From Escherichia phage vB_EcoP-CC1: 44,532 nt of DNA. Of this stretch, positions 29,378-35,318 are shown one piece after another (the stretch's first letter is position 1; every line of letters starts with the position of its first letter). A program made the translations under genes and the position numbers. The notes beneath the pieces were generated by a model that worked only from the letters and a program-made list of their open reading frames with translations, did no database searches and had not been told where the DNA came from. The stretch is from the sequence record OX457022; one strand, written 5' to 3'.

Positions 29378-29430
29378 CCAAAGGTGGTCACAAAGTAACC
29401 AAAGTCAAAATTTTGATGTAGGCGTGTGTC

Positions 29431-29475
29431 AGCCCTCTCGCCCTCGCCCTCGCCGGGTTGTCCCCATAGGGTGGC
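29431..29475. other. GC-rich block in terminal region ((CCCTCG)n then CCCCATAGGG)
   Basis: Non-coding; CCCCATAGGG resembles the CCCCCATAGGGGG element recalled near the T7 left end; candidate terminal-repeat/packaging region. Confidence 0.4.
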
Positions 29476-30092: not shown

Positions 30093-30121
30093 TTGACAAG
30101 GCCATCTCAATGTAATACTAT
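30093..30121 (+). promoter_or_regulatory. candidate host sigma70 early promoter (TTGACA-17-TACTAT)
   Basis: Perfect -35, 5/6 -10, 17-nt spacer; upstream of early small ORFs. Confidence 0.45.
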
Positions 30122-30193: not shown

Positions 30194-30209
30194 GCTCTTT
30201 AACAATTTG
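30194..30209 (+). promoter_or_regulatory. RNase-III-site-like element GCTCTTTAACAATTTG (copy 1)
   Basis: 16-mer repeated exactly at 30805; resembles recalled T7 R0.3 site GCTCTTTAACAATCTGG. Confidence 0.4.
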
Positions 30210-30359: not shown

Positions 30360-30532
30360 TTCTGAATAACCGTGAACTATCCATTCTCTTCACCTTGTTG
30401 TGCTATATGATTCGTAACAACGAATTACTTACAGACGATGAACTGGCACTATATCACCGTTTCCTTAACGAAGGTTGGGTCGATACAGTTAACCAGAAAC
30501 GTGACTTGATGAAGGAGTTAAGCAATGTTTAA
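30356..30532 (+). CDS. hypothetical early protein (58 aa)
   Basis: ATGA overlap with previous ORF; stop overlaps next ORF start. Confidence 0.35.
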   Translation: MILNNRELSILFTLLCYMIRNNELLTDDELALYHRFLNEGWVDTVNQKRDLMKELSNV

Positions 30533-30734
30533 ACATGAGATTTACACTGATTGCAGTAAATCGGCTAAAGCTATCTGCGATTTGTACAAGGCAGAATGCC
30601 AGACGTACAACCTCAACGATGGTACTGAGATGTTTTATCTTCAGTTTGAAAGCAAGTTATCTCACAAACGAGTGATTAACAGCCTGAATCAACACTCCTT
30701 GGAGTGGGAAGAAGTAAATAGCAATAAAGTTTAA
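30525..30734 (+). CDS. hypothetical early protein (69 aa)
   Basis: GAAGGAG RBS 8 nt upstream. Confidence 0.45.
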   Translation: MFKHEIYTDCSKSAKAICDLYKAECQTYNLNDGTEMFYLQFESKLSHKRVINSLNQHSLEWEEVNSNKV

Positions 30735-30743
30735 ATTAACTAT

Positions 30744-30772
30744 TGACAGCCACGGCATACAAGGTTACATTA
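30744..30772 (+). promoter_or_regulatory. candidate host sigma70 promoter (TTGACA-17-TACATT) upstream of ocr
   Basis: Perfect -35, 4/6 -10. Confidence 0.4.
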
Positions 30773-30804
30773 AGCATCAAGACGGCGACGTCTTTAAACA
30801 TCCC

Positions 30805-30820
30805 GCTCTTTAACAATTTG
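30805..30820 (+). promoter_or_regulatory. RNase-III-site-like element GCTCTTTAACAATTTG (copy 2)
   Basis: Exact repeat of 30194-30209, 94 nt upstream of ocr ATG, same relative position as R0.3 in T7. Confidence 0.45.
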
Positions 30821-30913
30821 GATGGTAGCTTCTTAGTCTGGATAGGTTAAACCTAGGGGATTCTCTTGAGTCTCCTATAATGTAACCTAACTAACTAAAT
30901 GAGGATTAATAAC

Positions 30914-31273
30914 ATGACTATGTCTAATATGACTTACTCTCAGGTTTACAACACCGCTCATGCTGCATTAGTTGAACGTATCTGGAATGATGCTATTGAT
31001 TGTATCGATAACGCACATGATGCAATCCATGAGGTAGCGGACAGTGCTGTACCAATCTATTATGCTGACATCTTCTCAGTGATGGCGAGTGAAGGTATTG
31101 ATCACTTCTTCGAAGACTCCGGCCTGATGCCAGATACTAAGGATGTAACGGTCGTACTACAAGCCCGTATTTATGAACAACTCACCATTGATTTATGGGA
31201 ACGTGTTCAAGATATGATTGTTGCGTACACCAATTACGCTGAGGATTCAGAAGAAGAAGAAGAGGAAGAATAA
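30914..31273 (+). CDS. ocr: Ocr (T7 gene 0.3-like DNA-mimic anti-restriction protein)
   Basis: MTMSNMTY...[42 protein letters not shown]...[14 protein letters not shown] plus poly-Glu tail matches recalled T7 Ocr nearly residue for residue; GAGGA RBS. Confidence 0.85.
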
Positions 31274-31275
31274 GG

Positions 31276-31389
31276 ATGGAAAAGCAATATAACTTTATCT
31301 TTTCAGACGGTGTGACCCTGAAGTGTTCCCTGCGTTTCGCACAGATTCGCGAGGAAGTGCTAGGAACTACATACAAACTATTTAGCTGA
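31276..31389 (+). CDS. hypothetical small protein (37 aa)
   Basis: Short ORF right after ocr; its 3' end contains promoter-like sequence at 31380. Confidence 0.25.
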   Translation: MEKQYNFIFSDGVTLKCSLRFAQIREEVLGTTYKLFS

Positions 31390-31401
31390 CACTATAAGAG
31401 A
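31380..31401 (+). promoter_or_regulatory. variant phage promoter-like sequence (ATTTAGCTGACACTATAAGAG)
   Basis: 16/17 match to SP6-type -17 to -1 but A at +1; upstream of RNAP gene. Confidence 0.4.
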
Positions 31402-31462
31402 GGGTTTAACAGGGCGCTCTTGCGAGAGTGCCCGATTAAATCAACTTAACGAGATATTAAAT

Positions 31463-31703: not shown

Positions 31704-32627
31704 ATGACTACTGAAAACACCCTCCTGTCTGTTCGTGAAGCTGCAACCGCTGAGATCAAGCAACACTTAGACAATATCGGCACTTCTTACATCAAAGTTG
31801 GCGCTTGTCTTAATGAGTTACGCGGTGACTTTGAAGGTCAAAAAGACTTTTTGGCTTATGTAGAATCAGAATTTGGAATCAAGAAAGCACAATGTTACAA
31901 GCTGATGAGTGTAGCCCGTGTCTTTGAAGGCGATGATCGCTTTAAAGGCGTGGCGATGCGTGTAATGCTGGCACTTGTTCCTTTCGCTGATGAAAATATC
32001 ATCATGGAGAAAGCCGCAGAACTTGCCGCAGCGGGCAAGCTGGACACTAATGCCGTAAATGCCCTGATTGATCCTAAGAAAGAGACAAAGGCCGAGACGG
32101 TACAATCTAAGGCTGAGGCGGTAAAACCGCAGGAGAATGCGACTGAGGCCGCAGAAACTATGCAAGGACATGCGACCTTTGAGGATTTCATCTTAGAGAA
32201 GGCGAAAGAGGAATTACAAAGTGTGCCGCCAGTAAGTGAGTCGGGTAACGACGAATCCGCACCGTGGGAAGATGAAAGCAAGCCGGAAGCGCCAAAGGCC
32301 GCGCCACTGGATAACACGGCTAACACGGAGAACGCCGCTATGTCTGGCCTACTGGCACAAATTAAGGCACTGACTGAGCAATTACAGGCAGCTAACGACC
32401 GCATCGCCGCCCTAACCAGTGCACGGGAAGGTAAGAAAGCGGCTGCGCCTATGCTTCCGCAGTTTAAATCCTCTTGCTTCTACGCTCGCTTAGGCTTGAG
32501 CGCCGAGGAAGCAACGAAGAAAACAGCAGTGAATAAGGCACGCCGTGAACTGGTTAAACTAGGGTATGGTGAAGGTCATGAGGCATGGCCTTTGATCTCT
32601 GAGGCAGTAGAAGAATTAACTAAGTAA
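31704..32627 (+). CDS. hypothetical early protein (307 aa), Ala/Glu/Lys-rich C-terminal half
   Basis: ATG 31704 with AAAGG upstream (ORF track start is GTG 31695); occupies slot between ocr and RNAP; no kinase motifs recognised. Confidence 0.6.
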   Translation: MTTENTLLSVREAATAEIKQHLDNIGTSYIKVGACLNELRGDFEGQKDFLAYVESEFGIKKAQCYKLMSVARVFEGDDRFKGVAMRVMLALVPFADENIIMEKAAELAAAGKLDTNAVNALIDPKKETKAETVQSKAEAVKPQENATEAAETMQGHATFEDFILEKAKEELQSVPPVSESGNDESAPWEDESKPEAPKAAPLDNTANTENAAMSGLLAQIKALTEQLQAANDRIAALTSAREGKKAAAPMLPQFKSSCFYARLGLSAEEATKKTAVNKARRELVKLGYGEGHEAWPLISEAVEELTK

Positions 32628-32690: not shown

Positions 32691-35318
32691 ATGCAAGATC
32701 TACACGCTATTCAGCTTCAGCTTGAGGAAGAAATGTTTAACGGCGGTATTCGTCGCTTTGAAGCAGACCAACAACGCCAGATTGCATCAGGTAATGAATC
32801 CGATACGGCATGGAATCGTCGCCTGTTGTCGGAGCTTATCGCACCTATGGCGGAAGGTATTCAGGCTTATAAGGAAGCCTACGAAGGAAAGAAAGGACGC
32901 GCACCGCGTGCACTGGCCTTCATTAACTGCGTAGAGAACGAAGTGGCAGCATATATCACGATGAAGATCGTAATGGATATGCTTAACACAGATGTAACCT
33001 TGCAAGCCATAGCAATGAATGTAGCTGATCGCATCGAAGATCAAGTACGCTTCAGCAAGCTGGAAGGCCACGCCGCCAAATACTTTGAAAAAGTTAAGAA
33101 GTCACTCAAGGCAAGTAAGACTAAATCATATCGCCATGCGCACAACGTAGCGGTAGTGGCTGAGAAGTCAGTAGCTGACCGTGACACTGATTTCTCCCGC
33201 TGGGAGGCGTGGCCTAAAGATACCTTACTGCAAATCGGTATGACCTTGCTAGAAATACTGGAGAATAGCGTATTCTTCAATGGTCAACCTGTCTTCCTCC
33301 GCACCTTGCGCACTAATGGTGGCAAGCATGGTGTTTACTACTTACAGACCAGTGAGCACGTAGGGGAGTGGGTTACAGCATTTAAAGAACATGTAGCGCA
33401 ACTTAGTCCGGCCTATGCACCTTGCGTCATTCCTCCGCGCCCTTGGGTGTCCCCTTTTAATGGTGGGTTTCATACTGAGAAGGTGGCAAGTCGCATCCGT
33501 TTGGTAAAAGGCAACCGTGAGCACGTCCGTAAGCTGACCAAAAAGCAAATGCCAGCAGTTTATAAGGCTGTTAATGCTTTACAGGCCACTAAGTGGCAAG
33601 TTAACAAAGAAGTTTTGCAGGTAGTAGAAGACGTTATCCGTCTCGACCTTGGTTATGGTGTACCTTCCTTTAAACCACTCATCGACCGCGAGAACAAGCC
33701 GGCTAACCCAGTGCCGTTAGAATTTCAACACTTGCGAGGCCGCGAACTGAAGGAAATGTTAACGCCGGAACAATGGCAAGCCTTCATCAACTGGAAAGGT
33801 GAATGCACCAAGCTGTATACCGCTGAGACTAAGCGCGGAAGTAAGTCGGCGGCAACCGTTCGCATGGTAGGACAAGCGCGCAAATACAGCCAGTTTGATG
33901 CGATTTATTTCGTGTATGCACTGGATAGCCGCTCACGCGTTTATGCGCAATCTAGCACACTCTCACCGCAATCAAACGACCTAGGCAAGGCGTTACTGCG
34001 TTTTACCGAAGGGCAGCCGCTAAATAGCTCTGAGGCGCTTAAATGGTTTTTGGTGAACGGGGCGAATAACTGGGGTTGGGATAAGAAGACTTTCGACGTG
34101 CGCACCGCTAACGTACTGGACGGCGAGTTTCAAGATATGTGCCGCGACATTGCAGCGGATCCTCTGACCTTTACTCAATGGGTAAATGCCGATTCACCTT
34201 ATGGATTCCTTGCATGGTGCTTTGAGTATGCTCGTTATTTGGATGCACTGGATGAAGGAACACAAGATCAGTTTGTGACGCATTTACCTGTTCATCAAGA
34301 TGGTAGCTGTTCTGGCATCCAGCACTACAGTGCTATGCTACGCGACGAAGTGGGTGCGAAGGCGGTAAACCTTAAACCATCCGACTCGCCTCAAGATATT
34401 TATGGAGCGGTTGCGCAGGTTGTTATCCAGAAGAACTACGCCTACATGAATGCAGATGATACAGAAACTTTCACATCTGGAAGCGTAACACTTACAGGTG
34501 CAGAACTGCGCAGCATGGCTAACGCGTGGGATATGATTGGGATCACTCGCGGCTTAACCAAAAAGCCAGTAATGACCTTGCCATACGGCTCCACCCGCTT
34601 AACCTGCCGTGAATCGGTGATTGATTATATCGTTGATTTGGAAGAAAAAGAGGCGCAGAGAGCTGTTGCCGAAGGGCGGACGGCTAATCCTGTGCACCCT
34701 TTTGATAATGACCGTAAAGACTATCTGACACCTGGTGCAGCTTACAACTATATGACCGCTTTAATTTGGCCTTCTATCTCTGAGGTTGTTAAAGCGCCTA
34801 TAGTGGCGATGAAAATGATTCGCCAGCTTGCACGATTCGCAGCTAAAAGAAACGAAGGGTTAGAGTACACCTTACCCACTGGTTTCATCTTGCAGCAAAA
34901 GATAATGGCTACCGACATGCTACGCGTATCCACTTGCTTGATGGGTGAAATCAAGATGAGTCTACAGATTGAGACTGATGTAGTGGATGAAACGGCAATG
35001 ATGGGCGCTGCCGCTCCTAACTTTGTTCACGGTCATGATGCGAGTCACCTTATTCTGACTGTATGTGACCTAGTTGACAAAGGTATTACATCAATTGCAG
35101 TTATTCATGACTCTTTCGGAACTCATGCAGGCCGTACATCAGATCTTCGTGATAGCTTAAGGGCAGAAATGGTTAAGATGTATCAAGGGCGTAACGCCTT
35201 GCAGCAATTGCTGGATGAGCATGAAGAACGTTGGTTGGTGGACACTGGCATTCAAGTGCCGGAACAAGGGGAGTTTAACCTTGAAGAGATATTAGTTTCT
35301 GACTATTGTTTTGCATAA
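32691..35318 (+). CDS. single-subunit DNA-directed RNA polymerase (SP6-type)
   Basis: 875 aa; N-terminus [32 protein letters not shown] and C-terminus ending DYCFA agree with recalled SP6 RNAP; AGGAG RBS. Confidence 0.95.

Follow-up and report, generated by a model that had tools for sequence, protein, structure and literature searches.

Background

Ocr, the product of gene 0.3 of phage T7 (gp0.3; PDB 1S7Z, Pfam family PF08684), inhibits EcoKI and BREX (PMC7261183). Its counterpart in phage SP6 (Zindervirus), Gp5, has been found experimentally to inhibit or abolish the BREX defence of Salmonella (PMC11341690). Some of the residues involved are known, and mutation of F54, A58 or L82 of Ocr breaks dimerisation or lets T7 escape PARIS (PMC7261183, PMC9122126, PMC10802264). 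The same strategy is followed by ArdA of plasmids and transposons, whose acidic dimer imitates B-DNA and thereby blocks restriction-modification (R-M) of type I (PMC2731889), although Ocr belongs to an unrelated sequence family.

Ocr has been annotated in SP6-like phages since the genomes of SP6, K1-5 and K1E, and a conserved homologue in Vectrevirus phages has already been remarked upon in print (PMC13005862). The DNA studied here (the window, i.e. the whole stretch of 44532 nt that was analysed) is a rotated version, at 100% identity, of record OX638290.1 of Escherichia phage vB_EcoP-CC2 (Autographiviridae, Molineuxvirinae, Vectrevirus), and we use "CC2" in all comparisons as the name of the window phage, its ocr allele and its RNA polymerase (RNAP). 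The phage originates from pig faeces, infects E. coli ST131 and was isolated for the decolonising of ST131 (PMC10433417). Its ocr is already annotated (CAI9889097.1, 'Overcome classical restriction gp0.3'). Gene, family, mechanism and presence in SP6-like phages are thus all known, and the discovery value of the locus is small, since Ocr is one of the best-studied anti-restriction proteins. Two features remain of mild interest: the ocr slot is a cleanly bounded cassette, and several deep alleles occur within one genus. In addition, the ocr allele of a therapeutic Vectrevirus could influence which strains carrying type I R-M or BREX it is able to infect, as well as its sensitivity to PARIS-like sensors, and the clean cassette boundaries make allele swaps easy.

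The ocr gene and its product

The ocr coding sequence of CC2 occupies positions 30914-31273 of the plus strand and consists of an ATG, 119 codons in all and a TAA stop, preceded by a Shine-Dalgarno sequence (GAGGA, 30901-30905, plus strand) 8 nt 5' of the ATG. A longer version of the ORF starting at an in-frame ATG at 30899 was rejected, as this codon lacks such a ribosome-binding site (RBS) and has no counterpart in the homologues. A minus-strand ORF (31182-31376) that overlaps ocr was likewise discarded for want of any support.

The first-pass annotation had described the product as a T7-type Ocr, almost collinear with the T7 protein and ending in an acidic tail, and both parts of this description hold. 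Residues 1-117 align with T7 gp0.3 without a gap at 64% full-length identity, the BLASTP comparison that it had proposed returned significant similarity (69 identities in 102 positions or 68%, no gaps, E = 5e-47), and the C-terminus of CC2 Ocr is indeed an acidic tail. A phmmer alignment likewise placed residues 1-117 on residues 1-117 of 1s7z_A (E = 4.2e-40). The family models agree: PF08684 ('DNA mimic ocr') matched with 143.9 bits (gathering score 25; E = 2.5e-42) over profile positions 1-100 of 101, and phrog_2568 ('ocr-like anti-restriction') with E = 4.6e-48.

An AlphaFold2 model built from 60 homologues (mean pLDDT 89.1) has predicted helices at residues 8-26, 35-45, 50-58 and 78-118, i.e. 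the same four-helix fold that is known from T7 Ocr. A Foldseek search of the PDB with this model gave eight matches at E <= 0.001, all of them Ocr chains (9ex7, 8zek, 8v45, 8q56, 1s7z, 6r9b, 7eew), and the next match had E = 2.2. These chains include free Ocr as well as complexes with BrxX/PglX, AriA, RNA polymerase and a type I methyltransferase, and they superpose with TM scores of 0.79-0.90 by query and 0.89-0.94 by target (rmsd 1.1-1.7 A); for 1s7z itself the values are 0.82, 0.91 and 1.1 A. ArdA was absent both from the Pfam scan and from the PDB fold matches.

CC2 Ocr carries 27 D/E against four K/R (net -23), compared with 34 acidic and six basic residues in T7 Ocr (net -28); the Biopython pI was uninformative, because almost every sequence reached its floor value of 4.05. 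CC2 Ocr is acidic at 23 of the alignment columns that hold the 34 acidic residues of T7 Ocr, has lost the other 11 and has gained four elsewhere. Most of the losses fall in two helices, namely helix 1 (D13, E17, D27, D30, D33) and the C-terminal one (D97, E99, E104, E107, E108), and overall identity is distributed in a similar manner, with 46 of 55 residues identical in the central region (45-99), 15 of 36 in helix 1 (9-44) and seven of 18 in the C-terminal helix. The dimer-interface residues F54, A58 and L82 are all identical to those of T7. Six Ocr residues are reported to make salt bridges with PglX of Salmonella, and CC2 keeps five of them, the exception being R80, which is V in CC2; this count assumes that the source paper numbers Ocr without Met1, an assumption which fits T7 at six of six positions. 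Because 11 acidic positions and R80 have been lost, the target range and potency of CC2 Ocr may differ from those of T7 Ocr. Nevertheless, the product of 30914-31273 is identified as an Ocr-family DNA mimic by its sequence and family model, by its predicted fold and charge, and by the residues of its dimer interface.

Expression context

In some related phages the deposited record begins at the physical left end of the genome; projected onto the window, this end would fall at about 29411-29434. On this basis ocr lies about 1.5 kb from the left end, comparable to its position in T7 (925) and SP6 (1637). Two sigma-70-like promoters precede the gene on the plus strand: one at 30093-30121 (TTGACA-17 nt-TACTAT, 10/12 consensus), about 0.7 kb from the presumed end and the first in order, and a second one directly 5' of ocr at 30743-30771 (TTGACA-17 nt-TACATT). 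Both are to be read as consensus matches only, as a scan of the region for sigma-70-like sites found no excess over shuffled sequence. By contrast, no phage promoter core occurs between the presumed left end and ocr, and the first SP6-type promoter in genome order, ATTTAGCTGACACTATAAGAGAG (31380-31402, plus strand, core at 31388), is situated 3' of the gene, where it overlaps the 3' end of the following 37-aa ORF. By position, CC2 ocr is thus placed as an early gene: it is close to the leading end, follows promoters of the sigma-70 type and precedes all phage promoters. By analogy with T7, host RNA polymerase would transcribe it as one of the first genes when the genome enters.

Each of the two host-type promoters is followed by a boxA-type element. 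The motif CTCTTTAACAAT, the core of the boxA antitermination element of E. coli rrnB, occurs 3' of the first early promoter as an exact match (30195-30206, plus strand) and again in the ocr leader, where it forms positions 30806-30817 of the longer element GCTCTTTAACAATTTGG (30805-30821, plus strand); these are its only exact copies in the 44.5-kb window. Among 18 loci compared from Studiervirinae and Molineuxvirinae, 16 have the same 12-mer on the plus strand upstream of ocr, including T7 (L003, 814-825). The recurrence of this motif suggests Nus-factor antitermination of the early transcription that accompanies genome entry.

The leader also contains a predicted stable hairpin (30829-30904, plus strand), which ends inside the ribosome-binding site. 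Energy prediction for the RNA 30775-30916 (142 nt) gave -41 kcal/mol (z = -3.9), and none of 200 shuffled sequences folded as well. In T7 the RNase III site R0.3 sits at the equivalent place, and the hairpin is possibly a processing site of the same kind. This part of the leader is strongly conserved within the genus: over 30735-30913, CC2 shares 98% identity with K1-5 and 97% with PDP21P3, though the ocr ORF differs. In K1-5 the leader of ocr (L012) has an insertion of about 210 nt (alignment columns about 757-968), which holds a short ORF together with a second copy of GCTCTTTAACAAT; CC2, PDP21P3 and SP6 lack this insertion.

The ocr slot in SP6-like phages

The presence of an SP6-type RNAP and promoter set beside ocr, as noted in the first-pass annotation, was confirmed. 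The window RNAP (32691-35318) is 86% identical to SP6 RNAP and 34% identical to T7 RNAP, and the window contains 13 SP6-type promoter cores (GACACTATA), all on the plus strand, against 0.42 expected by chance. The 9-nt core is required to reveal this set of 13, since the local 23-mer promoter used as a query has a single match in the window.

It had further been implied that a T7-type gene in an SP6-like backbone is an oddity, and this does not stand. The ocr gene of SP6 (gene 5) has the same length of 360 nt, belongs to the same allele type and occupies the identical slot, with genes 2-4 upstream and genes 53, 6, 7 and RNAP downstream, all of which are matched in CC2. In fact, ocr lies in the same slot in all ten other Molineuxvirinae that were sampled, namely the Vectrevirus members K1-5, K1E, mutPK1A2, PDP21P3 and two metagenomic contigs (L017, L018), and, outside that genus, SP6, the Klebsiella phages K1-ULIP33 and K44PH129C1 and the Acadevirus MidiMira. 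Their common gene order is (small ORFs)-ocr-37 aa ORF-(about 60 aa ORF)-about 295 aa-RNAP, in which the ORF of about 60 aa is missing from PDP21P3 and L017. Since SP6 and every sampled relative have the gene in this slot, ocr is an ordinary feature of SP6-like phages; in all, tblastn detected it in 571 phage records.

The DNA around the gene points in the same direction. A 761-bp block comprising leader, ocr and the next ORF aligns with SP6 over 94% of its length at 69.5% identity, versus only 24% with T7, where the alignment is confined to a 186-bp conserved core (query 317-502) at 71%. No T7 homology was found by blastn in the ocr flanks beyond this core, and the backbone RNAPs differ as stated; the short boxA-type motif is the sole upstream element common to the CC2 and T7 loci. 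CC2 ocr resembles its T7 counterpart in being early, behind host-type promoters near the leading end and furnished with a boxA-type motif in its leader, but it differs in its 3' neighbour. This neighbour is a 37-aa ORF (31276-31389, plus strand; phrog_11746, E = 4.7e-30, supported by synteny) that starts 2 nt after the ocr stop, adjoins ocr in every sampled Molineuxvirinae and is 91-94% identical where ocr has been swapped, while T7 has the unrelated gene 0.4. As BLASTP produced no alignment of the 37-aa ORF to gp0.4, the idea that ocr and 0.4 constitute a shared two-gene module was rejected.

Despite the shared slot, CC2 Ocr is only 60% identical overall to SP6 Gp5 (63% over 102 aa), and Gp5 is closer to T7 Ocr. 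Taken as a whole, we regard it as very probable that CC2 ocr is a resident gene of a Vectrevirus (SP6/K1-5-like) coliphage and encodes a DNA-mimic anti-restriction protein.

Allelic exchange at the ocr slot

While the slot is constant, its content is not. The phages K1-5, K1E and mutPK1A2 have RNAPs 97-98% identical to that of CC2 (97% for K1-5), yet their Ocr proteins are only about 45% identical (52% in the core), and the Ocr of PDP21P3 is visibly of the K1-5 type as well despite an equally near-identical RNAP (97-98%). Conversely, among the named phages compared, the closest Ocr to that of CC2 is found in T7 (64%, or 71% in the core), whose RNAP shares 34% identity. The K1-5-type proteins (K1-5 gp3, K1E gp3, K1F gp0.3) belong to PF08684 and possess the same conserved core, but differ from CC2 Ocr in their N-terminus (MERNANAYY...) and in a shorter C-terminal helix; they cluster at 78-85% identity with Ocrs from Kayfunavirus and Przondovirus, a group to which CC2 Ocr does not belong. 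The Ocrs of K1F (L005, 1114-1623) and SH3 (L009, 950-1459) are lengthened at the C-terminus by about 60 aa, to 169 aa. That of phiA1122 (L008, 906-1328) has a different, non-acidic C-terminus, is 140 aa long and matches Pfam PF27024 in addition to PF08684.

Neighbour-joining (NJ) trees of Ocr reproduce these groups. The alleles of CC2, SP6, T7, phiA1122, MidiMira and K44PH129C1 group together with 98% bootstrap support, those of K1-5, K1E and mutPK1A2 group with K1F, SH3 and kpssk3 with 100%, and monophyly of Vectrevirus receives 0%. A third type links K1-ULIP33 (Molineuxvirinae) with STP-SP4 (Kayfunavirus), whose Ocrs are 83% identical and whose RNAPs are 33% identical. The trees are based on p-distances over about 100 columns; clade memberships are robust, but no order of branching should be read from them within the T7/SP6-type clade. 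A large protein collection yielded a further allele, represented by P0014 and P0015 (72% and 70% identical to CC2 Ocr), on contigs with RNAPs that share 96% and 98% identity with the CC2 enzyme. In a phage collection, the CC2 type (>= 90% identity) was represented by 45 records and the K1-5 type by 24.

The limits of the exchanged segment can be located precisely by comparison with K1-5. Identity is 98% in the leader, from promoter to RBS, falls to 44, 67 and 32% in successive parts of ocr (the last being 31202-31245), rises to 82% in the GAA/GAG-rich codons of the acidic tail and the stop codon (31246-31273, plus strand) and reaches 94% in the next ORF. The break points of the cassette are accordingly the ocr start codon and the acidic tail, with 31246-31273 as its 3' junction. 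Two further early ORFs are also replaced relative to K1-5, namely the gene-4 homologue (30525-30734, plus strand, 69 aa; 42% nucleotide identity) and a 58-aa ORF after the first phage promoter (31463-31639, plus strand; 46%), the latter being absent in PDP21P3; the aligned segments flanking the replaced ORFs are 80-98% identical to K1-5, with the highest values (94-98%) beside ocr. By these alignments the whole early region of CC2 is a patchwork.

The conflict between the Ocr and RNAP trees, together with the sharp break points of the cassette, shows modular exchange at the ocr slot. At least three ocr alleles circulate in near-identical Vectrevirus backbones, and allele types recur in Studiervirinae. 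The first-pass annotation had suggested an exchange of the early anti-restriction module between lineages; for the slot in general, and in an older sense, this is correct, but a recent transfer of the CC2 allele from a T7-like to an SP6-like phage is not supported. The coexistence of deep alleles in one genus may reflect selection both by the defences that Ocr inhibits and by those that sense Ocr. A more far-reaching reading, which we offer tentatively and consider doubtful on balance, is that the ocr slot of Autographiviridae is a cassette locus where diversity is maintained by balancing selection in an arms race, and that the CC2 allele has a different defence spectrum. At least three deeply diverged alleles would then be shuffled between Studiervirinae and Molineuxvirinae by way of the boxA/hairpin/RBS leader on one side and the GAA-rich acidic-tail codons on the other, and both the inhibited systems (type I families, BREX) and the sensors (PARIS, EcoR22I, Ronin) would differ from those of T7 Ocr.

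Age and role of the CC2 allele

That 30914-31273 might be a chance ORF or an inactive remnant is so improbable as to be negligible, and the sequence statistics already refute it: the ORF is intact and has an RBS, its E-values against Ocr range from 1e-40 to 1e-48, the allele is kept at >= 90% identity in 45 phage records, and the Ocr fold is predicted with confidence. Another reading, implied by the title of the first-pass annotation, is a recent capture, in which the early module of a T7-like phage (Teseptimavirus) entered an SP6-like backbone. Exchange of ocr across subfamilies clearly happens, CC2 is closer in its core to T7 (71%) than to SP6 (66%), and in the annotated phage collection the best matches outside its own >= 90% cluster are T7-group Ocrs (64-69%) as opposed to 62.7% for SP6. 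Had the module been transferred recently, however, its DNA should resemble that of T7 beyond the gene, into the flanks, and more closely than ocr alleles otherwise resemble each other; CC2 ocr shows neither. Alignment to T7 DNA ends with the 186-bp core at 71%, the leader and downstream ORF are of the SP6/K1-5 type, and third-codon-position identity to T7 (45%) is about the same as to SP6 (46%), P0014 (46%) or any other allele compared (33-46%). Moreover, SP6 and all sampled Molineuxvirinae have ocr in this very slot, and in an expanded NJ tree the CC2 allele is nearest, outside its own cluster, to P0014 and P0015 (72% and 70% identity), both of which sit in Vectrevirus backbones. Given the third-position value, the lack of flank homology and these nearest relatives, the CC2 allele is old and no recent import from T7; the opposite reading is largely refuted and, in our view, very improbable. 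Instead, it is SP6 ocr (L002, 1637-1996) and T7 ocr (L003, 925-1278) that look most clearly like the products of a comparatively recent exchange between subfamilies; they are 79% identical in amino acids, 81% in nucleotides and 69% at third positions, with RNAPs of 34% identity.

A change of role is a different matter, as CC2 Ocr could have kept the fold but shifted its main activity to inhibition of host RNAP, to different or fewer defence targets, or to the avoidance of sensors such as PARIS, EcoR22I and Ronin. Such a shift would fit the reduced net charge (-23 vs -28) and the clustering of the 11 lost acidic positions in two helices, helix 1 and the C-terminal one. Ocr is known from the literature to bind RNAP and to trigger PARIS and EcoR22I, and the presence of several deeply diverged alleles in near-identical backbones suggests diversifying or balancing selection. 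Yet the central region is hardly altered (46 of 55 residues as in T7), F54, A58 and L82, the sites of PARIS escape in T7, are unchanged, five of six PglX salt-bridge residues are kept, and work cited within PMC7261183 indicates, as far as it is reported there, that the activity of T7 Ocr falls only after extensive loss of acidic residues. We therefore consider a diverged main role unlikely, albeit less so than a recent import.

Under the preferred reading, a resident anti-restriction gene, the events can be sketched from T7 Ocr and SP6 Gp5. Host RNA polymerase would transcribe CC2 ocr once the leading end has entered the cell, and the protein would form a dimer whose bent shape and strong negative charge imitate about 20 bp of B-DNA. 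By filling the groove in which type I R-M enzymes (HsdM2S, HsdR2M2S) and the BREX methyltransferase BrxX/PglX bind DNA, the dimer would let the remaining, unmodified phage genome enter without being restricted. The same surface could, at the same time, trigger Ocr-sensing abortive systems such as PARIS. In analogy to these described systems, type I R-M and BREX pressure on the phage in its host is a reasonable assumption from the literature.

Annotation of the locus

The deposited record and the window differ slightly, with 44531 nt in OX638290.1 against 44532 nt here, a rotation of 12007 nt and a discrepancy of one base. OX638290.1 is linearised at window position 32524, which lies inside the homologue of SP6 gene 7 (31704-32627, plus strand, 307 aa; phrog_4571, E = 2.7e-130), and as a consequence this gene is missing from the annotation. 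In its place a 169-aa minus-strand ORF (LIHBEBCN_00051, 31895-32404) is annotated, which is probably spurious.

Several GenBank records label Ocr homologues as 'protein kinase' (L010, 559-897; L004, 1899-2228; L007, 2307-2645; Enterobacter phage E-4). This label is a propagated mis-annotation, and it may be traceable to the 0.3-0.7 fusion deletions of T7 that are described in PMC7261183.
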